Sequence record: OP617741.1
Source of the DNA: Klebsiella phage KP13-16
Direction: 5' to 3' (one strand)
Length of the DNA: 64,000 nucleotides
Numbering within the stretch: position 1 is the stretch's first letter; each line of letters opens with the position of its first letter. The position numbers and the translations under genes are program-made. The notes under the pieces were generated by a model. The model had not been told where the DNA came from. It made no database searches and saw nothing but the letters and a program-made list of their open reading frames with translations. Below are positions 9,076-49,250 of the stretch, piece after piece.

Positions 9076-10053
9076 TCAAGCTTCTTTTTTCTCAGGAAAA
9101 ACCAGACTTGCAATAATACCCAAGGCCAGAGTCCCAAGCACAATACAAAGACTCACATTTGCTGAGATATCATGTGGCAAGAAAGACCATTTTGCATTTA
9201 GTGTCTCACCAAAAGGATGGTAAATCAGTTTAGCACCTACAAACACTAGAACTACAGCAACGGCTTTTTCCAGATGAACCAAGTATTTAACTGCTACACT
9301 CAGTACAAAGAACAGTGCACGGAGACCAAGAATTGCAAATAACATTGCAGAGTAAACCAGCAGAGGTTCTTGCGTCACACCAATTACAGCCGGGACAGAG
9401 TCAAAGGAGAAAATTACATCAGTAAACTCCACTACAAAGACACACAACAAAGCCGGAGTTGCATACTTGATCCCGTTCTTAATGGTGATAAATTTCTCGC
9501 CATCTAGAGCCGGATGAACAGGAAGAATCTTACCAACCAGACGAGTCGCCCAGTGTTTAGAGTAATCAACTTCATCTTCCTCATCATCACCGCCTTTGAT
9601 AATAGCCAGTGCAGACCATGCTACAATCAGACCGAACAGCACTTGGAAAAACCAGTGTAAATTAAAGATTGCCGTACCTGCTGCCACAAAGATACCTCGA
9701 AATACAATGGCACCAGCAATACCCCAAAGAAGAATCTTATGCTGTAAGTGTGTTGATTTGATCCCGAAGCTAGCGAATATTGCCATGAACACCATCAAGT
9801 TATCCACAGACAATGATTTTTCTAGCACATACCCACTCAGAAACAAAGAGGCAAATTCTTTGCCATACTCTACCCAAATAAAACCATAGTATGCAAATGC
9901 TAATGCGATCCAAAATGCAGACCAAGCCAATGCAGACTTAATACCGATCTCTTTATTTTCCTTGTGTCCAAAGAAATCTACAAGGATTGATAGTGCAAGA
10001 ACTCCAACAAGAACTGCAATATCCAGAAGGGGGAACCCAAAATGATGTGTCAC
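9076..10053 (-). CDS. terC: TerC-family integral membrane protein
   Basis: 325 aa multi-TM; conserved EKSLSVDNLMVF and EFTDVIFSFDSVPAV repeats typical of TerC/Alx. Confidence 0.75.
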   Translation of the reverse strand: MTHHFGFPLLDIAVLVGVLALSILVDFFGHKENKEIGIKSALAWSAFWIALAFAYYGFIWVEYGKEFASLFLSGYVLEKSLSVDNLMVFMAIFASFGIKSTHLQHKILLWGIAGAIVFRGIFVAAGTAIFNLHWFFQVLFGLIVAWSALAIIKGGDDEEDEVDYSKHWATRLVGKILPVHPALDGEKFITIKNGIKYATPALLCVFVVEFTDVIFSFDSVPAVIGVTQEPLLVYSAMLFAILGLRALFFVLSVAVKYLVHLEKAVAVVLVFVGAKLIYHPFGETLNAKWSFLPHDISANVSLCIVLGTLALGIIASLVFPEKKEA

Positions 10054-10725: not shown

Positions 10726-11122
10726 AATTTTCTGTCTTTAAAGTTTTTTCTAAATTGTTTAACATCTCTTCAGAAATATTTTTACTTTCTTGCATTTTCA
10801 GAAAGACAATCATTGCTGCACGAAGAGAATTCTTATCATTAAAACTGATATCAGAATTATTAGTATCATAACATAACCAATAACTAGGCTCATCAGTAAT
10901 CATCGGGGCTGATACTGTGATGTTATTGTTGTAGATAATATCCCATGCATCTGCGGGATTATTACAAGGATTGAAAACAAGCAAAGATCCATCTTTCCAG
11001 TAGCATAGATTACTGTAATTTTCATCAAGATCCGCCCATTCAAGCTTAATGACGTCTCCAACTCTTTTATTAATCTCAAAATCACTCATTCTGCTGTAAT
11101 CAGTATTGCTCATAAGCTTCAT
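10709..11122 (-). CDS. hypothetical protein (137 aa)
   Basis: ORF track. Confidence 0.35.
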   Translation of the reverse strand: MKLMSNTDYSRMSDFEINKRVGDVIKLEWADLDENYSNLCYWKDGSLLVFNPCNNPADAWDIIYNNNITVSAPMITDEPSYWLCYDTNNSDISFNDKNSLRAAMIVFLKMQESKNISEEMLNNLEKTLKTENFDTYE

Positions 11123-12600: not shown

Positions 12601-14721
12601 TTAAACCCTTATATGTTTTACACGTTGAACAACTTCCTGCATCTTCCCCTTGTTAAAAGGTCTACTGTTAGGTGCAGATAAGTAACCTGAGACTCTCCGA
12701 ATGACGTTGATCGTTCCTTCCTCAGTATTGCCACAATCAGGGCATTCAAAGCCTTCTGCTGTTGCTTTAAACTCTCCATGAAAGCCACACTTCAGACATT
12801 TATCAACAGGTTGATTAATCCCAAAGTAATGAATATTTTCATATCCATAGTCAATCAAAGCTTCCAAGCCTTTCATGTTATTTTTGAGATTTGGTGTCTC
12901 GACATAACCTATATTACCACCTGAACTGATAAAGTCAAACCCTGATTCAACATCCCATTTAGTAAAAGGATCAACTTGTTGGTCTACAGGAACATGGAAA
13001 GAGTTAGTCAAGTATTCTCTCTTGATAGTTCCAGGAAATTTCGCATTGATTTTACTGGCAAATTTATAACACAAAGACTCCGCTGGAGTTCCGTAGATAC
13101 CAAAACCAATACCTGTTTTCTTCTTATAAGCCTCTGCCATTTCTGACATAAGACTTAAAATCTTTTTCCCGTAAGCTTTATATTCCTCTAAACTACAATT
13201 TGGATAGAGAATTTGAATTGCTTCATATAACCCTACATAACCAAAACTTGCTGAAGCATAACCTTTGTAGAAAAGTTTGTCAATAGTTTCTTCAGGATCT
13301 AGTCTAGCTAATGCTCCTTCAACAAACATCACAGGATTTTGTTTTGCTTTAGTTCCCTTAAGGCGATTAATCCTCAACATATGTGCTTCATATGCTGTTT
13401 GCATATGCTTATAGAGTTCTTCCAGGAAAAGTTTACCACTACTGACAGAATCTTTAGCTATCATTGGTAAATTCAAAGAAACTACACCAAGATTAAATCT
13501 ACCATCATATTTCTCACCTTGTTCTGTAGCAAAATAAGAAAGGAAACTACGACATCCCATGCTAGTAACGTGACCTTTTGAAGATTTTGTAACCAGTTTA
13601 TTTCTAGGGACTGAAATAAAATCTGGGTAAATTCTTTCTGCACAACACTCCATTGCTAATTGTTTAAGGTCATAATTAGGATCACCAGGATTCATGTTGA
13701 CACCTTCTTCAAGGAAGAAAATTACTTTTGGGAACACAGGCGTTACTTTATCCTTACCTAAACCCTCTTTGTGGATTTTTAGATAGTTACGAGTAATCAT
13801 TCTACCAAATTCTGAGGTATCTAAACCAAGACTAATGGTGATAAATGGAGATTGTCCATTTACACTCATTAATGTGTTAACCTGGTAGATAAGAGTTTGC
13901 ATTGCATCGTAGACATCTTGCTCTGTAAGTTGCATTGCATTTATTTTGACTTCAGCACCAAATAAATTTCTAATAAGTTTTACATTTTTATTATAAGTCA
14001 GTTCTACATATTGCTTTAAACCTGTATCAATATGTGCGCAAGTTTGTCCACCATATTGGCTAGAGGCTACAGCCTGAATAATTTGTGTCAACACTGTAGT
14101 AGCAACACCAATTGATTTAGGTTTTTCAATGAAAGCATTTCCAATATGGAAACCATTTTCTAACATGTCTTGGTAATTAACGAGACAACAGTTGCTGAGA
14201 GGGCTGATTAGATAATCTAAGTCATGAATATGTCCAAAACCGCTTGTATGCCATTCTGAGAGGTCTTTAGGTAGTATTTGAGTCAATGCTACATGCTTAC
14301 TTAAAATCCCTGCTAAGAGGTCTCTATGAGTATTTACAACGTTACTGGGTTTGTTAGCATTCTCACGAGTAAATTCTTCTGCTGTTTGTTCTAAGAAGCC
14401 AGATATGTCATTATAAAGTTTCCCATTACCTTCACGGATTTTATCTCTGTCGTGCCTATACTCAATATAAGTTCTGGCTATGTCATATGTCTTTGGATTA
14501 GACATAAGGAAATCTTCAATCATTTTTTGAACATTTGAGACTGACTTATTCTCATTGAGATTTTTAACAATATATTCTGTAACCTCGTGAGCAACAAGTT
14601 CTGCTGTGATTGATAATGAAGAGTTAGCTAGTGCTGCTTGATATATTGCATTGTAAACTTTACGTTCATCAAATTGTTCTGTGCGCCCGTCGCGTTTTAT
14701 AATTTTATGTTGATACTGCAT
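12601..14721 (-). CDS. nrdD: anaerobic ribonucleoside-triphosphate reductase (glycyl radical enzyme)
   Basis: C-terminal glycyl radical motif RVSGYL, Zn-ribbon CPDCG...C; start trimmed to MQYQHKIIKRDG with RBS GGAGG (ORF-track start at 14748 reads through upstream hairpin). Confidence 0.9.
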   Translation of the reverse strand: MQYQHKIIKRDGRTEQFDERKVYNAIYQAALANSSLSITAELVAHEVTEYIVKNLNENKSVSNVQKMIEDFLMSNPKTYDIARTYIEYRHDRDKIREGNGKLYNDISGFLEQTAEEFTRENANKPSNVVNTHRDLLAGILSKHVALTQILPKDLSEWHTSGFGHIHDLDYLISPLSNCCLVNYQDMLENGFHIGNAFIEKPKSIGVATTVLTQIIQAVASSQYGGQTCAHIDTGLKQYVELTYNKNVKLIRNLFGAEVKINAMQLTEQDVYDAMQTLIYQVNTLMSVNGQSPFITISLGLDTSEFGRMITRNYLKIHKEGLGKDKVTPVFPKVIFFLEEGVNMNPGDPNYDLKQLAMECCAERIYPDFISVPRNKLVTKSSKGHVTSMGCRSFLSYFATEQGEKYDGRFNLGVVSLNLPMIAKDSVSSGKLFLEELYKHMQTAYEAHMLRINRLKGTKAKQNPVMFVEGALARLDPEETIDKLFYKGYASASFGYVGLYEAIQILYPNCSLEEYKAYGKKILSLMSEMAEAYKKKTGIGFGIYGTPAESLCYKFASKINAKFPGTIKREYLTNSFHVPVDQQVDPFTKWDVESGFDFISSGGNIGYVETPNLKNNMKGLEALIDYGYENIHYFGINQPVDKCLKCGFHGEFKATAEGFECPDCGNTEEGTINVIRRVSGYLSAPNSRPFNKGKMQEVVQRVKHIRV

Positions 14722-17175: not shown

Positions 17176-17609
17176 AGTTTTTCGAGAAGTTTCAACACAG
17201 CTTCTTTATCAAGAACAGTTGAACCGAGGAGTGCTTCAACCTCTTCAATTTGGAATACATCTCCAAGTTGGTGGGTATTGACTGGAGGACGGATCTTATC
17301 TTTGTGGTTCAGAAAAAGATCTTCTTCAAATCCATCTCGAACATATTTCCCTTTCAAATCTGTAATTTCAACAAGCTTAATCAACTTATGAAGTTTTTCA
17401 ACACGAAACTCAGGTGCTACTTTAGCTTCAACTTCTTCACGGAGGTCATCCAAAGAGCTTCGAACAGTATCAAGTTTCTCATAAACTTCTTCAAAGAAGC
17501 TAGAATCTAAAATATATTCCATATCTTTAAGAAACTCTTTGGGAGAGTTTTCAGCATACTCTTTAAGATCTTCAAACCAATCATTAATTTTATCAAACAG
17601 TGGATTCAT
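17172..17609 (-). CDS. hypothetical acidic helical protein (145 aa)
   Basis: ORF track. Confidence 0.35.
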   Translation of the reverse strand: MNPLFDKINDWFEDLKEYAENSPKEFLKDMEYILDSSFFEEVYEKLDTVRSSLDDLREEVEAKVAPEFRVEKLHKLIKLVEITDLKGKYVRDGFEEDLFLNHKDKIRPPVNTHQLGDVFQIEEVEALLGSTVLDKEAVLKLLEKL

Positions 17610-39816: not shown

Positions 39817-39980
39817 TATTTTATTGATCAGAGCTTTTATATTTTGACTTAAAAATCTGCACAAGAGAAGGCTTCACCTAAAATCTATGAGAAATTACGG
39901 TCTAGCTTTCTTTATATTAGGTGTATATTTAGTTTAAATAAAGTTTCATGTTAAAAGCATGTTCGATCTAGCATTTTTGA

Positions 39981-40225
39981 CATTTCGGATTTTAAAATCC
40001 ATAATTTTTTAGTGAAAAGTCAATTCCATGTTTTTAAAAGTGACATTTACAATGCAATGCAGTATAGCAAATACAGATTTTTATTCAAAATGTTTAATAT
40101 TCAAACCGTTTTAAATTTTATGAAAATTTTTTGTGGCAAATCGGGAAAAATTTGTAGCATTTTGGACATCCCTATTTTCAAAATCCATAATTTTCTGGTT
40201 CACATCATACCCATGTTTTTATCCA
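39981..40225 (+). repeat. imperfect ~60-bp direct repeat pair in AT-rich intergenic region
   Basis: ACATTTCGGATTTTAAAATCCATAATTTTTT...CCATGTTTTTA (39981-40045) vs ACATCCCTATTTTCAAAATCCATAATTTTCT...CCATGTTTTTA (40161-40225). Confidence 0.5.
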
Positions 40226-40251
40226 GGCAGTTTCTTGGGAATATCTCTAAG

Positions 40252-40330
40252 TGAGAATGGTTCTCATTTGAGAAGTTGAATGATAATCATTCTCATTTAT
40301 AAAACGAAATAAGACTCATTCGCATTTGCG
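40252..40330 (+). promoter_or_regulatory. cluster of Fur-box-like palindromic operators overlapping a sigma70-like promoter
   Basis: TGAGAATggTTCTCA (40252-40266); TTGAAT(40276-81)-GATAATCATTCTCATT-TATAAA(40298-40303), box 15/16 to Fur consensus core AATGATAATCATTATC; third half-site AGACTCATTCGCATT. Confidence 0.5.
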
Positions 40331-40583
40331 GAATGACGGGCAGGTTCGGTGTTTGTCTCGCGATTCCCGTTACCCCTCGCCATGTAGAAATAATAACATA
40401 ACCAACACTAGGATCAAGCGTCTTTACATTTCTTTACAAAACTATTCAAGGCGAGCTACCGGCGATTCACCTTCCGACCTGGCCCCCGCGCCTGGTACGT
40501 TAGCCCCGCCTTTTCGCCGTGGGGTGGCGTGTCCTCTTCTTTATGGATACATTATGCCCCATTCCCTGGGGCGTGTCAACACA

Positions 40584-40793
40584 TTAAACACCATATTTGA
40601 TAAAATCCCTGGCGGCTTGTGTAGGCTGATATTCTACGCCGTAAGCGTCATCCACCTGCACAAGAAAACCTTTCTTAATCAAGCCCGTTATTGCCCGGCG
40701 AGCTGCTGTATAACTGGTGAAATGTGAATCATTGCTAAAAGTGAAACCGTGTTTAATAGCTATTTCAAGAGTGAGTTTTTCTGTTTTGGTCAT
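40584..40793 (-). CDS. small hypothetical protein (69 aa), GC-rich
   Basis: ORF track; coherent composition; possible winged-helix-like. Confidence 0.35.
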   Translation of the reverse strand: MTKTEKLTLEIAIKHGFTFSNDSHFTSYTAARRAITGLIKKGFLVQVDDAYGVEYQPTQAARDFIKYGV

Positions 40794-40898
40794 TGTCCGA
40801 TCCTCGTTATGCCTCCACCGTGGCGGCTTGTTAATTACTATATACTAATGAAGGGAAAACGCAAGCGAAAAATTTAGAAAAATATTTGCATCCAAGTA

Positions 40899-40927
40899 TT
40901 GACGGGAAGATCAAGAGGGACTATTAT
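40899..40927 (+). promoter_or_regulatory. sigma70-like promoter
   Basis: TTGACG-N17-TATTAT upstream of ORF 40991. Confidence 0.4.
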
Positions 40928-40990
40928 TCACTACACAAGGCGAGGCGATAGGCGCACCGTGAGAGCAACGATAACCAGGAAGAAAAGAAA

Positions 40991-41212
40991 ATGGCAACAT
41001 TACACGTAGTAGTTTATAAGCACGCGGTAACGGGCGATGATATGATCCAGGTGCTTGTTAATGGCTTTTGTGAAATGGAACGAGAAGGCGATTTCAACGG
41101 TTATTGCATTGTGTGTGCTTTCCTTGATTCCCTGGTTGAAATGTGTGTTATCACTCATGAGCAGCGCGAAGCGAAGATCAACCGCCTGAAAAAACTTTTA
41201 GATATCGAATAA
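40991..41212 (+). CDS. hypothetical protein (73 aa)
   Basis: ORF track. Confidence 0.35.
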   Translation: MATLHVVVYKHAVTGDDMIQVLVNGFCEMEREGDFNGYCIVCAFLDSLVEMCVITHEQREAKINRLKKLLDIE

Positions 41213-41219
41213 AAACCGC

Positions 41220-41278
41220 TTGACAGATTCGCACAGTAACGTATAATTCACTTCATAGGCAGCGGGAATGGTTCCCGC
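41220..41278 (+). promoter_or_regulatory. PeSL-like cassette: consensus sigma70 promoter + stem-loop
   Basis: TTGACA(41220-25)-N16-TATAAT(41242-47) followed by hairpin GCGGGAA-tgg-TTCCCGC (41262-41278). Confidence 0.55.
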
Positions 41279-41301
41279 GCCGATATAAAGAGATTTGAAA
41301 A

Positions 41302-41592
41302 ATGAAAATTTCAGAGAACAAAGATTTAATTTTCACCGTTAAAAATTATATCCGCCACCCGTATGAATTTGGCGGATATCCGAAAATTTTAATTATGCGT
41401 GATGGTAGTTGCCTTTGTTCAAAGTGTACGCATGAAAATTTTCCCCGCCTATTGGAAGAATTAAGAGATGAGAGTGATCTAGCATGGATGCCCGCGGACG
41501 TGGATGTTTTCTGGGAAGGTGCGGATTTCCCGTGTGGTAATTGCCAGACTCCGATCCATAGTGCATATGGAGATCCCGAAGAAGAAGAATAA
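41302..41592 (+). CDS. hypothetical Cys-rich protein (96 aa)
   Basis: ORF track; CLCSKCTHE...CGNCQ. Confidence 0.35.
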   Translation: MKISENKDLIFTVKNYIRHPYEFGGYPKILIMRDGSCLCSKCTHENFPRLLEELRDESDLAWMPADVDVFWEGADFPCGNCQTPIHSAYGDPEEEE

Positions 41593-41595
41593 ATA

Positions 41596-41652
41596 TTGAC
41601 AAGCATCTAAAAGATAGTAAACTGTTAATCAAAGGGCGGGAATGGTTCCCGC
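41596..41652 (+). promoter_or_regulatory. PeSL-like cassette: TTGACA + same stem-loop
   Basis: TTGACA(41596-41601) and identical hairpin GCGGGAATGGTTCCCGC (41636-41652) in 5' leader of next ORF. Confidence 0.5.
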
Positions 41653-41672
41653 CAAAACAAAGAGAGAAAATT

Positions 41673-41834
41673 ATGATTGCTATGAATACCCGCGAAGCCG
41701 CTCGCAACGTAGCCCGTAAAGTTAATGCCGTTGCACCTGCTAAATTGAAAGCACCAGTGAAAGGCGAAAACGGCTGGATCTTCCCTGGCTTGTCTCATGC
41801 CGACAACAAAGGCACTTTGAGCCTGAAAAAATAA
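41673..41834 (+). CDS. small hypothetical protein (53 aa)
   Basis: below cutoff; RBS AGAGAG. Confidence 0.3.
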   Translation: MIAMNTREAARNVARKVNAVAPAKLKAPVKGENGWIFPGLSHADNKGTLSLKK

Positions 41835-41835
41835 G

Positions 41836-41872
41836 TTGACTTTTCGTTATAGCGCCTTATAATGGGCGCTAT
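41836..41872 (+). promoter_or_regulatory. sigma70-like promoter with inverted repeat flanking -10
   Basis: TTGACT-N16-TATAAT(41858-63); TATAGCGCC / GGCGCTATA palindrome around -10; first 15 nt identical to promoter at 42841. Confidence 0.5.
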
Positions 41873-41898
41873 AGAGAAGAGAAACCAGGAGTAGAAAA

Positions 41899-42051
41899 AT
41901 GAAAATGTATAACGTGGTAGTAGTGAACAATAAAACAGGCGTCAAAGTGATCATGAATGCTTCACCGTTAACCCATTTAGAAGGTTGCACTATGTTAGCT
42001 AAACTAACCAAATACACCTGGCGAACAGAAAAATTAGAAGAAATTTGTTGA
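41899..42051 (+). CDS. small hypothetical protein (50 aa)
   Basis: below cutoff; RBS GGAG; stop overlaps next TTGACT. Confidence 0.3.
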   Translation: MKMYNVVVVNNKTGVKVIMNASPLTHLEGCTMLAKLTKYTWRTEKLEEIC

Positions 42052-42085
42052 CTTTCTGTGATGCCTCTTTATAATAAGGGGCATT
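42048..42085 (+). promoter_or_regulatory. sigma70-like promoter with inverted repeat flanking -10
   Basis: TTGACT(42048-53)-N16-TATAAT(42070-75); ATGCCTC...GGGGCAT imperfect palindrome. Confidence 0.45.
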
Positions 42086-42120
42086 GAAGAGAGAAGCCAA
42101 ACAATCTAACGAGGTGTAAA

Positions 42121-42342
42121 ATGGTTACATTCGCAATTATTTCTCTGGTAGCTGGTAACGTGTTTATTAATGACACTTTCCCGGCGGATGATAGCAAACC
42201 TGGCGAGATCAGCACAGTTTATGCAGATTGTAAAGCCGCCGAACGTATGTTATCACCTTGCTTGCTGATGAGTGAACGCGACGACGGGAAGATCGTATTC
42301 ACGAACGTGGAAACATGGTATCAATTGGTAGTAGAAAAATGA
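42121..42342 (+). CDS. hypothetical protein (73 aa)
   Basis: ORF track. Confidence 0.35.
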   Translation: MVTFAIISLVAGNVFINDTFPADDSKPGEISTVYADCKAAERMLSPCLLMSERDDGKIVFTNVETWYQLVVEK

Positions 42343-42488
42343 ATCCTAAGCATAAAATGATGATGGAAGCAAGCCGTTTCATCAATAAAACAGAAAAAAG
42401 AAAATGTTTTGTTTTATGTCTTACAACGCTTGCAATTGGTTTAGTGTGTGTTATTATTACTTACACGAACATTGAAGCAGGAAATTAA
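42339..42488 (+). CDS. small membrane protein (49 aa)
   Basis: below cutoff; one predicted TM segment; ATGA coupling. Confidence 0.3.
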   Translation: MNPKHKMMMEASRFINKTEKRKCFVLCLTTLAIGLVCVIITYTNIEAGN

Positions 42489-42490
42489 AA

Positions 42491-42835
42491 ATGGCTAAAA
42501 ATATTAATAAAGCAGAAAAAAGTTTTGTTAAATTGTCGGATGTTGAATGCGTACATATTAATGCACGCCGATGGTTTCAACGTTCATATGGTAATACATA
42601 CTTTTCTTTAAAAGTAGACGTAGAAGTTAACGGACAGATTATTAATATTGTTAATGTGCCTTTTGAGTATGGTTATGGGGATCATTATGATTCTGTAGCT
42701 TTAAAAGAATTTAAAGAAGCTGTTATATTAGATGAAAAATTGGAGGACTACTGCTATTTATCACGTGCCCTTAAAGAATCTGGTATTTTAGTTTATAATC
42801 ATTGCTCTGATGTAGACCGTAAAAAAGATTTATAA
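42491..42835 (+). CDS. hypothetical protein (114 aa)
   Basis: ORF track. Confidence 0.35.
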   Translation: MAKNINKAEKSFVKLSDVECVHINARRWFQRSYGNTYFSLKVDVEVNGQIINIVNVPFEYGYGDHYDSVALKEFKEAVILDEKLEDYCYLSRALKESGILVYNHCSDVDRKKDL

Positions 42836-42840
42836 TTTAT

Positions 42841-42880
42841 TTGACTTTTCGTTATGCCCTGTTAGAATATAGGGCATAGA
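42841..42880 (+). promoter_or_regulatory. sigma70-like promoter with inverted repeat flanking -10
   Basis: TTGACT-N16-TAGAAT(42863-68); TATGCCCT / AGGGCATA palindrome. Confidence 0.45.
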
Positions 42881-42913
42881 GAAAAGAAATAACACTAACC
42901 AGGAATATCTAAA

Positions 42914-43114
42914 ATGACTAAATCTACTTTTGACTTTTCAAAAATGGTTGTTGAATCTACCGAATCCTTGAAAGGATTCAGAAAAGAAAGCGGCTATTAT
43001 AAATCATTGTCACTTGTTGGTTTACATGATAATCAAATTAAATCATTTGCCGAGATCCGCCATTATGCAACAAAAGCAACTACGTTTGTTTTTGGATTCA
43101 TTCCCCTATCTTAG
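42914..43114 (+). CDS. hypothetical protein (66 aa)
   Basis: ORF track. Confidence 0.3.
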   Translation: MTKSTFDFSKMVVESTESLKGFRKESGYYKSLSLVGLHDNQIKSFAEIRHYATKATTFVFGFIPLS

Positions 43115-43319
43115 GTTTATATGGTCAAGTAGGCGCAAAGGCTGGCGGTTATGGTTATAATAGATCTGAAGCAGCTATTTCTCAGGCAGCAAGAAAATTT
43201 AATATTGATGTCCCTAGCTGGTGCGATCAGCAAACATTATTAGAAGAACTTGCAAAATATTTAGGTTTAGAGGTATATTCTGTAATTGAAACAAATGCTT
43301 AAAACTTAAAGGTAGCATT

Positions 43320-43610
43320 ATGTTAAAACAGGCGAAAACTTATGTATTGAGTAAGTTTATTAAACGGGTATTAAATGACCCAGTTTATAAAACTTACTAC
43401 TGTTACAAAATACTTGATAACAAAGGTGATTATTTAATTTCTTCTGTGATGTGCCATGAGCAAGCGATGATCTTTGAAATAGGTTTAAGACAAAAGAAAG
43501 TTTTAAACGAAATAATTTCATTTGAAATTATTGCTCAAGGCGGCGAAGATGAAGTAACAGAAGAAAAATATCATGAAGAAAATTATATTAAACAAACATT
43601 GGAAGATTAA
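43320..43610 (+). CDS. hypothetical protein (96 aa)
   Basis: ORF track. Confidence 0.35.
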   Translation: MLKQAKTYVLSKFIKRVLNDPVYKTYYCYKILDNKGDYLISSVMCHEQAMIFEIGLRQKKVLNEIISFEIIAQGGEDEVTEEKYHEENYIKQTLED

Positions 43611-43612
43611 AG

Positions 43613-43744
43613 ATGCAAAGCAAAAATTTTGAAAAGATTAAGAGCAGTAAGCAACGTTTAGAATGTAATGAGACAGATGAACGCCGGGAGCGTAGTAATA
43701 AACGCAATAAGCCGCAGCGTAAGCGTTTTAATTGGGAAGAATAG
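43613..43744 (+). CDS. small basic protein (43 aa)
   Basis: below cutoff; TAAAGATG coupling. Confidence 0.25.
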   Translation: MQSKNFEKIKSSKQRLECNETDERRERSNKRNKPQRKRFNWEE

Positions 43745-43877
43745 GGAAACCTATTAATAAAGATTAAAGCCTCTTAGAATGGATTTTAGGGGCTTTAAAT
43801 TTGATTTAAATTTTTCTTGCTTTTTCCATTTTGTTGATCTATTCTCTTAATCAGGCAAACAAAGAGAGATTTACAAA

Positions 43878-44138
43878 ATGGAAACATTAAACATTTTAAA
43901 TGATAGATTCTGTTTTGATTTAATAGGTCTGTTAATTATTTCACCTGTAACTATTATTTACGCTATCCTAACTTTTAAAGGTCTAACTATGAAACAAAAT
44001 GTAATGAAGATCCACACTAACACCGGATCTACAATTGTTACCCCGTTTCATTTTGCAATGAAAAGCCGTTGCAAACGTCTTAAAAGTGAGTTAAAATCTA
44101 ACACAAATACAGGTTTTAAACGTTGGGGTAAAATCTAA
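43878..44138 (+). CDS. hypothetical protein (86 aa)
   Basis: ORF track. Confidence 0.3.
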   Translation: METLNILNDRFCFDLIGLLIISPVTIIYAILTFKGLTMKQNVMKIHTNTGSTIVTPFHFAMKSRCKRLKSELKSNTNTGFKRWGKI

Positions 44139-44440
44139 TGAAAGCGAATGATTCTTTTTTCTTCTCAGAATGTAAAGATCATGTTTTAGTTGACATTCAG
44201 TCATTTTCTAATACTATGAATTTTAGATTCACTAGTGAAAGAATAGTTGACAAAGGTCTATTGTTGACTATTACAACAAAGAAAGAAAAAGGTTGTTTTG
44301 AATTAAATTATAAGCTTTCACAAGACAATCAATTATTAGCCCAGGATGGCGGGAAAAATATTCCACCGAAAGATCTATTCTATGTCATTAGTGACATTGT
44401 TAATGATGCTTTTTCTTGCGAGATAAGATTAACAGCTTAA
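44138..44440 (+). CDS. hypothetical protein (100 aa)
   Basis: ORF track. Confidence 0.35.
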   Translation: MKANDSFFFSECKDHVLVDIQSFSNTMNFRFTSERIVDKGLLLTITTKKEKGCFELNYKLSQDNQLLAQDGGKNIPPKDLFYVISDIVNDAFSCEIRLTA

Positions 44441-44487
44441 AAAGAAAGTCAATAGCTTTTCCAATTATTTTTCATTTTTGCGTTATG

Positions 44488-44580
44488 CAAAAAAGTGAAT
44501 TTAAAGACTTCTCACACAAGATGATTAAGGGTATGGCAAACGGCTAGAACCTCTTAGAATGCGTTTTAGAGCGTTTTACG
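44488..44580 (+). repeat. repeated intergenic element copy (CAAAAAAGTGAAT ... CCTCTTAGAATG)
   Basis: shares 13-mer CAAAAAAGTGAAT and 12-mer CCTCTTAGAATG with 46531-46635; 12-mer also at 43770. Confidence 0.5.
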
Positions 44581-44795
44581 GGGTATTGACTTTTACCGAA
44601 AGGCTCAAAACGTCATATAGTTAGTTTCATCGTGCGATTGTTGCGGTACGAAATTACATGGCGACCGCTACAAATGGGACAATGCTGGATTAAAATAATG
44701 TGCATTATTTACGCCCTGGGGCTTGATCTCCCTGGGGCGTTTTGCTATCCTTATTTTGTGGCGGCAATGATGCCAACCACTAACGAGGATTTAAC

Positions 44796-45095
44796 ATGGA
44801 ACCTTTACAACTTCTTTCCACTTTACGCGCTATTGCCAACAACACTTTGATCGCTTGCCAGCGCCAGGAGTTTAAACCGGAATTCATCTATAAGAATCAT
44901 AACCAGCAGTTAGCCACCATTGAACAGGCGATCAGCGGTTACAATATGGGGGCAAAGGTTAACGCGAAATATAAAGCGGAGATCAAGAAAATAATGCTTG
45001 CACCAATGAAAGATAAGAATTATTATCTTATCTCAGAACAAGTAAAGCAAGGCGTAAATAAATTATCAAGCGCTATTGACTTTATGAAACGATAA
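44796..45095 (+). CDS. hypothetical protein (99 aa)
   Basis: ORF track. Confidence 0.35.
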   Translation: MEPLQLLSTLRAIANNTLIACQRQEFKPEFIYKNHNQQLATIEQAISGYNMGAKVNAKYKAEIKKIMLAPMKDKNYYLISEQVKQGVNKLSSAIDFMKR

Positions 45096-45140
45096 ACTAC
45101 AAAGGCGGCAGCAATGCCACCAATGTTAGACAGGTGAAAA

Positions 45141-45434
45141 ATGTTACAATCTAACAAAAATTTAAAATTACGTCAATCCCTCGTAAACATGGCGATCAAT
45201 GTCGAGCCGTACAAACGAAAGGAACCTAAGCAAGATATGCGAGGGAGAAAAATCACTTGGACAGATCAACAGGTATTAGAGATCCGCGCCCTACATAAAT
45301 TTACAGCAATGAAACCAGCGGAGATCGCAGAAAAATATAATACAACAAAAGGCGCGATCACCTATTTACTAACATATAATACTCGTGTACTCTTAGAGCC
45401 AGAAAGAAAACATTTACCAATTGAGGCGAAATAA
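45141..45434 (+). CDS. hypothetical protein with HTH-like C-terminus (97 aa)
   Basis: KPAEIAEKYNTTKGAITYLL resembles helix-turn-helix. Confidence 0.35.
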   Translation: MLQSNKNLKLRQSLVNMAINVEPYKRKEPKQDMRGRKITWTDQQVLEIRALHKFTAMKPAEIAEKYNTTKGAITYLLTYNTRVLLEPERKHLPIEAK

Positions 45435-45741
45435 AATGGCTAAAGTATTGAATAGTAAACAATTGTCTGATACAATCTCAATTACTGAATGCACAGATGG
45501 ATTCTGGCTATATGACGAAACGCGCGGGATGAATCTGTCAATGCGGGCAAAGAGCAGCGAGGCGGCATTATTTGAGGCGCTGGAATATTACCAGGAGCGT
45601 TTCCAGGAAGTGCAAAACAATTACAACAGCCTTAAAGCGAAAGTAGATCATTTTGTCGGGCAGGTGGTAGATCATGATTGCGGTGATTATTATTGCAATC
45701 GTTGCGGATCATCCAGTGAGATAGAATATCACGGCAATTAA
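45421..45741 (+). CDS. hypothetical protein (106 aa)
   Basis: ORF track; C-terminal CGDYYCNRCG. Confidence 0.35.
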   Translation: MRRNKMAKVLNSKQLSDTISITECTDGFWLYDETRGMNLSMRAKSSEAALFEALEYYQERFQEVQNNYNSLKAKVDHFVGQVVDHDCGDYYCNRCGSSSEIEYHGN

Positions 45742-45817
45742 CAGCACTTTTTGCTAAAACAGAATATCTCTTTGTGTTATTATCTTTATAGAAAGAAAAT
45801 TAACCGGAGAGAAGAAA

Positions 45818-45955
45818 ATGGGACTTGTAACAGCTTTTATTATCTTTGTTGTTTTAAGCGCTGTATTTGGTGGCGGAAAAGGCAAGAAAGGCAAACGTAA
45901 GAGCCGCGCTGGATCTGGTCAGAATGGCTATGTTTACTCTCATAAAAATCATTAA
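45818..45955 (+). CDS. small membrane peptide (45 aa)
   Basis: RBS GGAGAGAAG; hydrophobic N-terminus then Lys/Gly-rich tail. Confidence 0.3.
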   Translation: MGLVTAFIIFVVLSAVFGGGKGKKGKRKSRAGSGQNGYVYSHKNH

Positions 45956-45969
45956 TAGGAATAATTATC

Positions 45970-46212
45970 ATGAATGCTGTAGATATCTTTTTAGCGGCTT
46001 ATGTTAAAGCAATGTTGTGGAGTAGTAGCGGCACAGACCAGGACGGCGAAGATCTGGAAAGTCTGGAAGGGTTCGAACTTTCCACCGAATCGCTGAAAAA
46101 AGCTAAAGAAGATTGCGAATCATTCTTATTTGCATCAAAAGCGCTTTTCGCTGATTTGCCTACCTGGTACGGGAAAGGCGACGGCGGGATCTATGCTTAT
46201 CTCAGAGCATGA
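45970..46212 (+). CDS. hypothetical protein (80 aa)
   Basis: ORF track. Confidence 0.35.
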   Translation: MNAVDIFLAAYVKAMLWSSSGTDQDGEDLESLEGFELSTESLKKAKEDCESFLFASKALFADLPTWYGKGDGGIYAYLRA

Positions 46213-46379
46213 TTAATGAGATTGATTCTCGTTATTCAATGGCGCTTGAATATCAAGCACAAGCACAATACTTACAGCTTGATATTGAAGAGCAACAAGA
46301 TCAAGACGCTTTTTGGGAACACCAGGACGCTCAAGCGGATTTTGATGCAAAACTCAATATGTATTATAACGAATATTAA
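46209..46379 (+). CDS. small acidic/Gln-rich protein (56 aa)
   Basis: protein-like composition; preferred over overlapping ORF-track 46216-46482 frame. Confidence 0.3.
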   Translation: MINEIDSRYSMALEYQAQAQYLQLDIEEQQDQDAFWEHQDAQADFDAKLNMYYNEY

Positions 46380-46530
46380 TACAACAGGGGGCCGCTATGG
46401 TTCCCCGCTTTTTATCCAAATAAAAACCATTTCAAATAGGGCGCACAAAGCGCCCTTTCTTTTTGCCTGTTATTCTCAATAACCCTTAATAGCGTGAATC
46501 ATAGATTCTGCCTATTGAAATCATTCACAG

Positions 46531-46635
46531 CAAAAAAGTGAATAAATCGCGTTATAAGGTTTTCTAAGCTAGATTGACTAACTACCAGGGGTAAGCGGTA
46601 AACCTCTTAGGATGGCTTACAGGAGCTTTAAGGGC
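46531..46635 (+). repeat. repeated intergenic element copy (CAAAAAAGTGAAT ... CCTCTTAGGATG)
   Basis: see 44488-44580; includes ATTCAC-n9-GTGAAT inverted repeat. Confidence 0.5.
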
Positions 46636-46927
46636 CATATGACTATACAAAACAGAGCTTATTTTACAATTTTTGATTGAAATTAATTAAATAATAACTA
46701 TTATCATCTAAGTATGTATAATTATTCACTTTATTGCATAAGTAAGATCAATTCTCATTAACTCTAACCTTCCTAACCTTATTCAATTCTATGTAATAAA
46801 CTTTATATTAATTAGAAAACTAATCATTTATTATTTATAAATTGCGAAGCAATAAATAACGGTTCCCGATTGCAACATTTATTTAAATTATGTTATTATA
46901 AACAATTAAAACTAATAGGAAGTATTT

Positions 46928-47410
46928 ATGGCACTATTGAAAACAGATCACATTATTAAAACTTTTGAGAATTGGTATATTTGCAAATGTGAACTTTGTA
47001 ATGATTTATTTGCTATAACTATTGATGGAAGAAGAAAAAGTTATTGCTCTTGTAGTCTAAGTATAAGTAAGTTAAATAATAAACAAAATATTGTTTATAT
47101 ATTAGAAAACGGACAATCTTTTTATAAAATAGGCTTATCCTCTAAATCAAGTTTAGATTATAGAATAAAGGTTATAAACGAGGGATTTATTAAGTTAAAT
47201 TTAAAACCATTTTATTGTATTAAAACCTTAAATATTAAATCAAGATCTATTGCATATTCTATAGAGAGAATGCTTTTATATTCATTTAAAGATTTAAAAG
47301 CCTTTCCTATTAAACCTTATATTTTTGAAGGTCAAAGAGAAATAATTAAAGATTTAAATATATTTGCTTTAAATAATAGAATAAAAACTTTAATTTCTCT
47401 TTTCAAATAA
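46928..47410 (+). CDS. T5orf172/GIY-YIG-superfamily domain protein with N-terminal zinc-finger-like motif
   Basis: IVYILENGQSFYKIGLSSKSSLDYRIK resembles GIY-x10-YIG/T5orf172 core; CKCELC...CSCS; extremely AT-rich gene. Confidence 0.4.
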   Translation: MALLKTDHIIKTFENWYICKCELCNDLFAITIDGRRKSYCSCSLSISKLNNKQNIVYILENGQSFYKIGLSSKSSLDYRIKVINEGFIKLNLKPFYCIKTLNIKSRSIAYSIERMLLYSFKDLKAFPIKPYIFEGQREIIKDLNIFALNNRIKTLISLFK

Positions 47411-47439
47411 AAATGTTCGCGACGAAGTTTTAACGAGGA

Positions 47440-47620
47440 GCGAACATATATAGAGTAAAGTAACACCCTCCCTTTGGTCGTGAGTTCCTCTCTATATTGT
47501 TCGCTTGAGAACATTATGAGAGAATATCTCACCTTATAAATTATCGAACAATATAGAGAGTGATCCTAAAAGCTTTCAGTTGAAAGCTTTAAGTCTCCCT
47601 TTACTCTATATATGTTCGTT
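47440..47620 (+). repeat. nested perfect inverted repeats (potential ~180-nt cruciform/structured RNA)
   Basis: CGAACATATATAGAGTAAAG (47441-60) / CTTTACTCTATATATGTTCG (47599-618); inner CTCTATATTGTTCG / CGAACAATATAGAG; plus AAAGCTTTCAGTTGAAAGCTTT palindrome. Confidence 0.55.
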
Positions 47621-47929
47621 TTCTGAATGATTGCAAGTGCAATCAATTGCTACGCAATCAAATATGTTCGATAATGCTTTGTCAAGAATATAATGGATAA
47701 TGTTATAAATAAATATCTTTACTTTTAATAAAATTTGCCTGTTTACAGGTGGGCATAGCCCATCCCGGAAGGGACAAAATTTATGTGTGCAAATCCATTA
47801 AAATACTAAACAAGATTTTGATTGACTTTGTCAATTTGATGCGGGCATCAACTTAGCGAATAGCTAAGCATTGTTTTCTCTTTTCACTTGACAAGGCACC
47901 TTTTCAAAAATTTTTTCTTATGCGTAAAC

Positions 47930-48120
47930 GCAAATGAGATTTATTCTCACTTGACCATGAATGAGAATTATTCTAAATCTGATAATAATTCGTATTTGTT
48001 ATTGATTGCGCGATGTCGCAGAGCCGACAGAAAGCGCGAGGATCCTACGTGTAACAGTTATCAAACAGGCGGTTGACCTGTTATAAAGCTTGATTGATAA
48101 TCATTCTCATTCAAGATTTG
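47930..48120 (+). promoter_or_regulatory. second cluster of Fur-box-like palindromic operators overlapping sigma70-like promoters
   Basis: AATGAGAtttATTCTCA (47933-49); TTGACC(47951-56)-AATGAGAATTATTCTAAAT; TTGATT(48090-95)-GATAATCATTCTCATTC-AAGATT nearly identical to 40276-40303. Confidence 0.5.
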
Positions 48121-48149
48121 TTTTAGAGCAGAACTTGCAGAAAATGTCA

Positions 48150-48520
48150 AGAATCTGGGAGGAAATATATTTTTTATTTTGCTTGATATTTTAAAATTAT
48201 CAGGGTTCAAAATCTGGCACAACTTCGGCTATTAAGCACTGAGGACATAGAGCTTGAGCACTGTGGATGTAAATCCTAGAAGTAGATATATTCTGGGAGG
48301 GTTATGCCTTTTGTTAATTGAATCAATACTTTATAGATATTAAGGTTGCGTAAAGCAACTCAGACGTGAACGTCCATTATATTTTCTGGGAGGATATTTT
48401 AAAGATGGTGCCCCTGTTTTTAATTCTGAAATTTGGGGGAGGGGTGTAAAATTGAGTGGAAAACAGAGGTTAGTCAAATTGACTATTAATTAGTGGTTAA
48501 ATTGACTATTAATGAATAAT
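48150..48520 (+). repeat. short dispersed repeats in ~1-kb non-coding tract
   Basis: TCTGGGAGG x3 (48150, 48290, 48386) plus TTTGGGGGAGGGG; tandem AAATTGACTATTAAT x2 (48474-48512). Confidence 0.45.
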
Positions 48521-48634
48521 TATTCAGGGGTGTTTGATGGTAAGCAGGTTAGATGTTTATGCTATCGACACATTAGAGGAATATGTTTAAGAAATGTCAT
48601 TTTATCGACATATTGATGAGAATAGTAACTAATC

Positions 48635-49012
48635 TTATTTGGTATATGACGGGCAGATCTGGTGGTTGTTTCGTGTAGCATCAGCAACATATAAAATCTC
48701 ATTAAAAGATGAGAAGATGTTTTCATCTCGGAATGTAAAATCTACACCTTTATACGTGGTATCTAAGGGATAGAATTTATGATGTGATACACCCTCAGAA
48801 TAATGGATTATATCACCTTTAATAAGATAAGGTTGCAAGCGCTCTAAGAATTCTTCATGAAATTCTTCACTAAGATTGGTAACATAGGTATTGGGCAAAG
48901 GTAACTTTTTAATAACCATTGGCCTAGATACCTTCTCAAATGGGATCGTGTACCAATTACGCTCGCCATTACGTTGACGTGGTTCTACTGCAAAAATTTT
49001 AAAATCAGACAT
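48635..49012 (-). CDS. hypothetical protein (~125 aa)
   Basis: ORF track; start trimmed to MSDFKIF. Confidence 0.35.
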   Translation of the reverse strand: MSDFKIFAVEPRQRNGERNWYTIPFEKVSRPMVIKKLPLPNTYVTNLSEEFHEEFLERLQPYLIKGDIIHYSEGVSHHKFYPLDTTYKGVDFTFRDENIFSSFNEILYVADATRNNHQICPSYTK

Positions 49013-49250
49013 TTTGTTCTCCTGTTTTATTTTCAAGGTAAGCATCAATCACTCCGTACACACTAGAGTAATCCATGTCAGGGTACACATTTAAAATATT
49101 GTTGTAACAGTCTGAGGTTGTTTTATTTTTAGACTTTTTAGTCCCAAAAACAGTAAAATAGCTCTTACATGTCATTCGTGCTTGTTTAACCTGTTTACGA
49201 TCCCCGGTATCTTCAAAATTTAATTCTTTAATCATGGTTGTCATCTCCAC
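49005..49250 (-). CDS. hypothetical protein (81 aa)
   Basis: ORF track. Confidence 0.3.
   Translation of the reverse strand: MEMTTMIKELNFEDTGDRKQVKQARMTCKSYFTVFGTKKSKNKTTSDCYNNILNVYPDMDYSSVYGVIDAYLENKTGEQNV

Follow-up and report, generated by a model that had tools for sequence, protein, structure and literature searches.

What are the palindromes that recur at two places in the genome of Klebsiella phage KP13-16? The DNA analysed here, referred to as the window, is a 64,000-nt stretch of this phage (OP617741.1). It carries sequences resembling operators of the iron regulator Fur at positions 47930-48120, and a second such cluster near 40.3 kb. A first-pass annotation, made from the letters alone, had proposed that the two clusters could serve both as iron-responsive control sites and as the recombination borders of an acquired cassette. 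The source phage is a virulent Klebsiella myovirus (Stephanstirmvirinae) and its closest relative is vB_KpM_FBKp34 (141 kb; FBKp34 below). The explanation towards which we lean, by a modest degree, is that the palindromes are host Fur operators placed at two conserved landmarks, where they would form an iron-responsive gate on transcription.

Fur-type palindromes in two clusters

The six main boxes are 19-bp palindromes of the pattern AATGAKAATNATTMTCATT, located at 40250, 40279 and 40308 (left cluster) and at 47933, 47960 and 48093 (right cluster; Table 1). With up to three mismatches allowed, this pattern has 12 matches in the 64 kb, 10 of them within 40250-48111, compared to 0.58 expected (at most 3 in 100 shuffles); separate block shuffles gave a mean of 0.63 and likewise a maximum of 3. 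The left cluster is a regular three-box array with a period of 29 bp, which had been overlooked in the first-pass annotation. The latter had pointed to a near-identical 27-nt unit repeated 7.8 kb apart. Indeed 48090-48112 (TTGATTGATAATCATTCTCATTC) and 40276-40298 (TTGAATGATAATCATTCTCATTT) agree at 21 of 23 positions and a repeat exists, although the length given for it is slightly generous (95% identity for the 22-nt copy, 85% for the 26-nt copy). The two further palindromes that it mentioned are present at 47933-47951 and 47960-47978, as is the arrangement TTGACC (47951-47956), 17-nt spacer and TAAATC (47974-47979). Among the weaker boxes, that at 46690 overlaps a predicted promoter (46677-46704).

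All six main boxes have the form of a Fur operator, a 19-bp inverted repeat GATAATGATAATCATTATC or, in the 9-1-9 register, AATGATAATnATTATCATT. They match the Fur consensus AATGATAATNATTATCATT at 13-17 of 18 positions, or at 15-18 when G/T and C/A (K/M) are allowed at positions 6 and 14. A tally of 82 phage boxes from 17 sources reads AATGA(G/T)AATnATT(C/A)TCATT. The same palindrome occurs in phage T5 (AY587007), with boxes at 9473, 9508, 9531, 9577 and 9612 in the stretch 9473-9630, and the box at 9577, AATGAGAATCATTATCATT, matches at 17/18.

The context of this sequence class in bacteria was analysed using exact matches to AATGAKAATNATTCTCATT in one genome per species (at least 120 loci). 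Open reading frames (ORFs) starting within 350 nt of a box (120 ORFs) were compared with those at control positions 3 kb away (69 ORFs). Among the matches listed, the box-flanking ORFs include Plug (9), TonB-receptor barrel (8), FUR (6) and iron-type binding proteins (5), together with ECF sigma factors (4), FeoB (3), ZnuA (3), Peripla_BP_2 (siderophore-binding; 3) and FecCD (2). For the 69 control ORFs, the listing of the 25 most frequent families includes none of these iron/Fur families. In bacterial genomes the sequence class is tied to iron-uptake genes and to fur and, judged from this context, its bacterial occurrences are all Fur operators. Since the bacterial class marks Fur-regulated genes, abundant host Fur would be expected to bind the phage copies, and binding of Fur to the phage boxes in one way or another is probable. 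Fur-box-like, the term used in the first-pass annotation, is an apt description at the sequence level, both for the agreement with the consensus and for the presence of the same 19-mer class at iron-uptake and fur promoters.

The phage boxes share several properties with bacterial Fur boxes such as the iucA aerobactin operator and the fur autoregulatory site. They belong to the same 19-bp palindrome class, whose exact motif is found upstream of genes for TonB-dependent receptors, fur, feoB and iron ABC genes, and box 48093 covers the -10 hexamer and the start site of a sigma-70 promoter. Overlapping boxes at a 6-bp offset are a hallmark of natural Fur operators. They are found in some bacterial operators, in T5 (9577/9583 and 9612/9618) and in phage BME3 (53/59/65). 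In contrast to bacterial Fur boxes, the phage boxes lie in non-coding DNA of virulent phages, in arrays of 1-5 with a 29-bp period, in terminal repeats or at a module boundary, mostly without conserved promoter overlap and without an iron-related gene downstream.

Fur boxes on phage DNA are also known from temperate phages, where stx1 is reportedly a Fur-regulated cargo gene. On lambdoid prophages, sitABCD is Fur-regulated phage-borne cargo (PMC6969025). As would be the case here, a Fur box in phage DNA ties phage-borne transcription to host iron status, but temperate-phage cargo has a single box before an iron-related or toxin gene, whereas the present arrays occupy non-coding terminal or boundary DNA of virulent phages. 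Fur boxes as such are textbook knowledge; in the literature searched, arrays in the terminal repeats or at the early-region boundaries of virulent phages are undescribed as Fur sites and only the cargo-gene boxes of temperate phages were found.

A BLAST search of E. coli genomes with a 30-nt box, an insensitive search, gave nine matches, including one between yhhX and yhhY and one in a prophage, adjoining a terminase gene. In the E. coli YPE10 chromosome (L066 2501-2523), a prophage intergenic region matches the phage-type box at 21 of 23 positions. This box lies directly upstream of a small ORF preceding the terminase large-subunit gene, adjoins an HNH endonuclease gene and could be another Fur-type box near a phage packaging region.

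Table 1. Coordinates in the window of the boxes, promoters and other features discussed in the text
Feature	Position	Strand	Description
Box L1	40250..40268		AGTGAGAATGGTTCTCATT; Fur 9-1-9 match 14/18, 16/18 with K/M allowed; L2 follows 29 bp on
Box L2	40279..40297		AATGATAATCATTCTCATT; 17/18, relaxed 18/18; commonest box sequence among relatives
Box L3	40308..40326		AATAAGACTCATTCGCATT; degenerate here, yet the best-kept box among relatives
Box R1	47933..47951		AATGAGATTTATTCTCACT; kept in FBKp34 (L001 16874)
Box R2	47960..47978		AATGAGAATTATTCTAAAT; within TTGACC-17-TAAATC (47951-47979, +), weak -10; kept in FBKp34 (L001 16901)
Box R3	48093..48111		ATTGATAATCATTCTCATT; 16-17/18; FBKp34 counterpart AATGAGAAGCATTATCATT at L001 17034
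Weaker Fur-like boxes	45954, 46112, 46215, 46690 (range 45954..46708)		partly inside coding sequence; status uncertain
Equivalent of short direct terminal repeat (putative physical genome end)	47868..48234		from FBKp34 alignment; exact ends here inferred
Promoter-like unit TTGAAT-16-TATAAA	40276..40303	+	spans L2; sequence reading; -10 lacks final T; absent from promoter scan
Strong sigma-70 promoter TTGACA-17-CATAAT	39977..40005	+	before the left array; in 45-nt repeat
Strong sigma-70 promoter TGGACA-17-CATAAT	40163..40191	+	before the left array; in 45-nt repeat
Promoter TTGACC-17-GATAAT	48073..48101	+	scan 10/12; R3 covers -10 hexamer and transcription start
Sigma-70 promoter TTGACA-17-CATAAT	40551..40579	-	scan 11/12; far end of the conserved element, aimed at the Fur-type array
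Second leftward promoter TTGATC-16-TATTAT, extended TG	40390..40417	-	inside the conserved element; equivalent in about 10/16 relatives
Conserved non-coding element, about 260 nt, GC-rich	40327..40583		primary-sequence blocks; directly right of the left array
Slot gene, 69 aa	40584..40793	-	terminates at the element; no Pfam or PHROG family
Bfd-like bacterioferritin-associated ferredoxin, 63 aa	10248..10439	-	Pfam Fer2_BFD PF04324, E = 2e-11, above curated cut-off

Position and conservation of the clusters

PhageTerm mapping of FBKp34 gave a direct terminal repeat of 367 bp, short and of the 'T7-like' class, at 12,982-13,347 of the record (PMC8386662). This repeat corresponds to 16809-17174 of L001, the FBKp34 piece used for comparison and the reference for FBKp34 coordinates so labelled. 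It holds the three right-cluster boxes of FBKp34 and aligns without gaps, at 93.3% identity, with window positions 47874-48229. On this alignment the whole stretch 47930-48120 is placed inside the physical genome end, and what had been described as a right-hand border is reassigned accordingly. The genes are oriented rightward between about 27 and 47.4 kb and leftward past 48.6 kb. As these flanking genes face each other, the right cluster is located in a 1.2-kb non-coding gap with convergent transcription.

A second example is provided by BME3 (Justusliebigvirus), for which a 342-bp repeat was reported (PMC12210895). Its record begins and ends with the same 342 nt, which include two boxes, at positions 53 and 248; these boxes correspond to the right cluster of phage anhysbys. 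The 'DTR-L' annotated in the BME3 record (PP239276; L188/L064) at 146957-147298 is off by 73 nt, the real duplicate of 1-342 being 147030-147371. The repeats of FBKp34 (classed T7-like by PhageTerm) and BME3 (present at both record ends) resemble short direct terminal repeats of the T7 type; we know of no host-regulator boxes inside the repeat of T7 itself. FBKp34 differs from the T7 type in its T4-like terminase, and its authors consider the packaging mode unclear (PMC8386662).

Near the terminus, CTGGGAGG occurs four times together with a 23-nt tandem repeat. Four (T)TCTGGGAGG-like motif copies start at about 48153, 48291, 48386 and 48435 (48153-48450) and are followed by the tandem repeat (GTCAAATTGACTATTAAT...) at 48473-48518. 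They lie across the inner end of the terminal repeat or beyond it, are conserved in FBKp34 and may be packaging or replication signals. Tiny ORFs behind GGGAGG motifs in this part are not conserved.

The left array is present at the same place in all 16 relatives, which belong to two subfamilies and include phi92, PVP-SE1, anhysbys, CR3, phiTE, GAP31, BIS47, NDO71 and ChuuTotoro. It comprises 1-5 boxes, mostly with a 29-bp period; spacers and neighbouring genes vary while the boxes persist. The L2 19-mer is found unchanged in anhysbys, phiTE, GAP31, BIS47, NDO71 and Gostya9, and in the alignment of relatives the proximal box and the ensuing ...CATTTGCAGAATGAC stretch are almost invariant. An 86-nt array query retrieves 473 phage records from the Stephanstirmvirinae, the Vequintavirinae (including rV5) and the T5-like Demerecviridae, three lineages which all infect Enterobacterales.

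To the right of the array lies the conserved non-coding element, matched by 279 phage records at 72-92% identity and one of the few stretches in this region that match at the nucleotide level across two phage subfamilies. The gene in the slot beyond it belongs to at least four unrelated protein families among the relatives. In the window, the slot protein shares 97% identity with orf199 of Klebsiella phage NDO71 (Vequintavirinae, Mydovirus), and the 3' part of the element, next to the gene, is almost the same in both phages. This likeness indicates that the subfamilies have recently exchanged DNA, with the conserved element as crossover point.

Such exchange at the slot gene could be taken to favour the proposal that the clusters are direct repeats bordering an acquired cassette of higher GC content (40.3-48.1 kb), as could the 21/23 agreement between repeats 7.8 kb apart and the high variability of the intervening region among relatives. 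The comparison with related phage genomes that had been suggested for this segment was carried out and covered, for the right-hand border, FBKp34, anhysbys and BME3. All three retain the two clusters together with the intervening segment, the clusters being 7.8 (FBKp34) to 11.7 kb (anhysbys) apart. Change between the clusters proceeds gene by gene and not by presence or absence of the block: in FBKp34 most genes are in order, with single-gene gains and losses, anhysbys shares just four genes, and the whole block is absent from none of the relatives compared. Over the region 39.0-49.5 kb, FBKp34 is 92.7% identical to the window with 64% of the length covered in 15 pieces. The variation also runs past the right cluster, to ORFs at 48.6-50.2 kb, to the right of the terminus, that have no FBKp34 counterpart. 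The higher GC content described for 40.3-48.1 kb applies to 40-42 kb only (0.40-0.42), the remainder (42-48 kb) being at 0.28-0.38 compared to a window level of about 0.35. The right cluster, finally, lies inside the equivalent of the FBKp34 terminal repeat and is not a cassette edge. On these grounds an origin of the clusters as cassette borders is hardly credible.

Promoters and the candidate binder

The promoters around the boxes differ greatly in their conservation. The leftward promoter at 40551-40579, aimed at the array from about 250 nt away, has an equivalent in 16/16 relatives in which the hexamers are kept and the spacer is a variable GC hairpin. The rightward promoters at 39977 and 40163 are restricted to the source phage and FBKp34 among the 16 relatives, and the hexamers of the 40276 unit are not conserved among relatives. 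Overlap between box and promoter is seen at 48073-48101 and, with a defective -10, at 40276 and 47951, and no overlap is conserved among relatives. The 'promoter/operator unit' of the first-pass annotation is weakly supported: of three -10 hexamers, TATAAA and TAAATC are without the final T, and the one good promoter, at 48073-48101, is not kept in FBKp34, which has GAGAAG at the -10 position. What selection retains is the boxes and a promoter pointed at them.

Occupancy by Fur and an effect on transcription are what we infer from the identity of the boxes to Fur operators, their conservation, their positions and this promoter geometry. In the proposed gate, the first landmark would be the short direct terminal repeat with boxes 47933, 47960 and 48093, and the second the 40250-40326 array, which delimits the variable early-gene region on its inner side, some 7.9 kb away from that end of the genome. 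Dimers of Fe2+-Fur on the boxes would block RNA polymerase when cells are iron-replete. At the left array a Fur roadblock would halt the conserved leftward transcripts from 40579 and 40417, which if unblocked would run antisense into replication and methylase genes, as well as the rightward transcripts from 39977, 40163 and 40276, which are peculiar to this lineage. Within the terminal repeat, Fur would keep RNA polymerase off the promoter at 48073-48101 and bar transcription from crossing the genome end, by occlusion or as a roadblock. Iron limitation would open both gates.

Several observations weigh against such a gate. The phage boxes favour G/C at positions 6 and 14, where the textbook Fur consensus has T/A, and E. 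coli chromosomes rarely contain the fully symmetric form GAGAAT...ATTCTC. Box-overlapping promoters are weak or lack conservation, even in FBKp34, and classical promoter occlusion therefore cannot be the conserved function. Action of Fur as a roadblock is less well documented than promoter occlusion, and that the gate works in this mode rather than by occlusion is a tentative proposal which may well prove wrong. The strongly conserved 260-nt element beside the array could itself hold the real function, for example as an origin or packaging element. The T5 boxes have no -35 element and no gene downstream and, as T5 degrades host DNA early, a role that depends on host expression cannot be general.

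The G/C preference at positions 6 and 14 is also relevant to the nature of the binder, since it departs from the textbook Fur box. A protein other than Fur, encoded by the phage or not, could be what recognizes the boxes, for example as replication iterons next to an AT-rich region for unwinding or as a terminase, packaging or end-processing site, their likeness to Fur operators being incidental. Their presence in terminal repeats and beside an element with tandem promoters, which recalls primer-RNA origins, would fit this explanation, as would the regular, iteron-like 29-bp period and the further terminus-proximal repeats described above. Other observations speak against it. A tblastn search with E. 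coli Fur found no homologue in these phage groups, and the window and the FBKp34 and anhysbys regions compared contain no T5 pre-early homologue; with no phage-encoded candidate found, a host factor is left as the common binder. In addition, the same 19-mer is present in three lineages that do not share the T5 pre-early proteins, the array-adjacent proteins differ among phages and there are no DnaA boxes nearby. Finally, the 19-mer class marks bacterial Fur-regulated genes, so that abundant host Fur would be expected to bind in any case. We consider a binder other than Fur unlikely.

A different role for Fur binding is that of a decoy: 6-9 high-affinity sites per genome, multiplied by replication, would titrate Fur and de-repress host iron uptake and the release of stored iron. 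Together with the phage Bfd this would supply iron to the phage ribonucleotide reductase and iron-sulfur enzymes. The BFD-like gene noted in the first-pass annotation is real (Table 1), carries the annotation bacterioferritin-associated ferredoxin in FBKp34 and is a candidate iron link at a distance from the boxes. At the DNA level its region is shared only with FBKp34 among deposited phages. A Fur-like match is also found near bfd, at 10822; it falls within coding sequence, and chance is its probable cause.

A phage-encoded Bfd is what a decoy might lead one to expect. The sites are nearer to consensus than many native operators, several are present per genome in non-coding DNA without consistent promoters or downstream genes, and each virion DNA molecule would carry the terminal-repeat copy at both ends. 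In the classical titration assay, the Fur regulon is released from repression by Fur boxes in multicopy. On the other hand, titration leaves the fixed positions, the 29-bp period and the coupling to a conserved element and promoter unexplained. Fur is abundant, with thousands of molecules per cell, and T5 destroys host DNA early, which would make de-repression of the host useless there. A decoy function is decidedly unlikely on this balance, and Fur operators that gate transcription remain the reading we prefer. If Fur binds, three large groups of enterobacterial phages (T5-like, rV5-like and phi92/PVP-SE1-like), which include therapeutic and model phages, would read host iron status at their genome ends, with a bearing on phage therapy in iron-starved infection sites.

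Phage T5 and neighbouring features

In T5 the boxes coincide with the annotated direct repeat C copies 1-4 and palindromes E, G and I, and adjoin the 7.9% nick (9661); in T5-like records the arrays lie within annotated terminal repeats. The calculated shear point of first-step transfer (9618) falls at the boxes, DnaA boxes have been proposed as the T5 stop signal and the functions of the repeats and palindromes in the IRD'spacerIRC'-DRE cluster were called 'impossible to guess' (bioRxiv 10.1101/866236). This 'Repeat Region 3' (direct repeat C 1-4, palindromes E, G and I, DRE repeats), a candidate injection-stop region, thus has the same palindromes as the window, and T5-like phages match the window array directly by BLAST. 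In both cases the array is separated by 8-12 kb from one physical end and bounds, on the inner side, a block of early genes that is highly variable; in the window, 40250-40326 lies 7.9 kb from the end of the terminal repeat.

Other T5 characteristics are missing. T5 combines a terminal repeat of 10 kb with paired DnaA boxes (IRD'-spacer-IRC'), whereas the putative repeat of the window is about 370 bp long and 39-49.5 kb includes no DnaA box. No homologue of the T5 pre-early proteins, including A1 and A2, is present in the window or in the regions of FBKp34 (L001) and anhysbys (L002) compared, and relatives of A1 were seen only in T5-like and some marine or other phages. Conversely, T5-like phages lack the 260-nt GC-rich element. 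Two-step DNA transfer is a T5 feature which is not known for phi92-like or rV5-like phages. Since it lacks both DnaA boxes and pre-early homologues, the window is not a member of the T5 system, though the cis element is common to both.

A wider proposal is that the array is a shared cis-acting checkpoint of early infection, marking the inner boundary of the first 8-12 kb at one physical end in T5-, phi92- and rV5-like phages. Fur, with or instead of DnaA, would then be the host component of the T5 injection stop and of the early-to-late transition, and in the big enterobacterial myoviruses entry or expression would proceed in comparable stages under the control of host iron status. We regard this as very doubtful. 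Binding of Fur, if real, would in itself provide a concrete, testable identity for the T5 repeats.

The conserved element beside the left array was analysed for other functions. In annotated records it contains no consistent gene, and a hidden small gene was rejected from the alignment, in which indels are not multiples of three and neither a start codon nor a reading frame is conserved. A known RNA family was rejected as well: no Rfam match was obtained with the whole window at the gathering threshold or with 40200-40650 and 47850-48700 at E up to 10, the relaxed search giving only meaningless microRNA-type matches on palindromes, and no tRNA was found. The element does not behave as a structured RNA, with consensus folds of -18.8 and -14.1 kcal/mol on the two strands, covariation terms near 0 and single-sequence z-scores of -0.9 and -0.13, which are not significant; covariation is seen in short local hairpins only, for example CCCC/GGGG to CCAA/TTGG. 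A host origin was rejected, with no match among 5,426 E. coli genomes. When viral contigs were scanned for exact 15-mers of the element, most matches were due to chance, true relatives making up 5 of 48. The neighbouring slot, occupied by unrelated genes in different phages, was rejected as the source of a conserved partner protein.

Two further observations concern the element. The first is a 37-nt partial copy (76%) of its first conserved block (ATGACGGGCAG..GGTG.TTGT.TCG) at 48637-48673, 0.4 kb past the terminal repeat, which overlaps the 3' end of the ORF at 48635-49048 and is also found in FBKp34 (L001 about 17490-17520). The second is an invariant block, CTACCGGCGAT at 40456-40466, with a substitution in phiTE. 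It reads ATCGCCGGTAG on the strand of the conserved leftward promoter, and this may resemble the core of the RfaH-recruiting ops element (GGCGGTAGCGTG).

The early region between the clusters contains additional repeats. A 56-nt module occurs three times (41829-41884, 42041-42096 and 42834-42889) and includes a near-consensus early promoter, TTGACT-16-TATAAT, whose -10 hexamer lies in the loop of a GC hairpin. These modules recall the promoter-stem-loop units which, in the hyperplastic regions of T4-like phages, are linked to the shuffling of genes. Hairpin units of a second family are found at 43765, 44545 and 46598. Directly after the last early gene, 47441-47618 carries nested perfect inverted repeats, CGAACATATATAGAGTAAAG and CTTTACTCTATATATGTTCG at a distance of 138 nt with an inner pair CTCTCTATATTGTTCG and CGAACAATATAGAGAG, of which FBKp34 has a near-identical copy.

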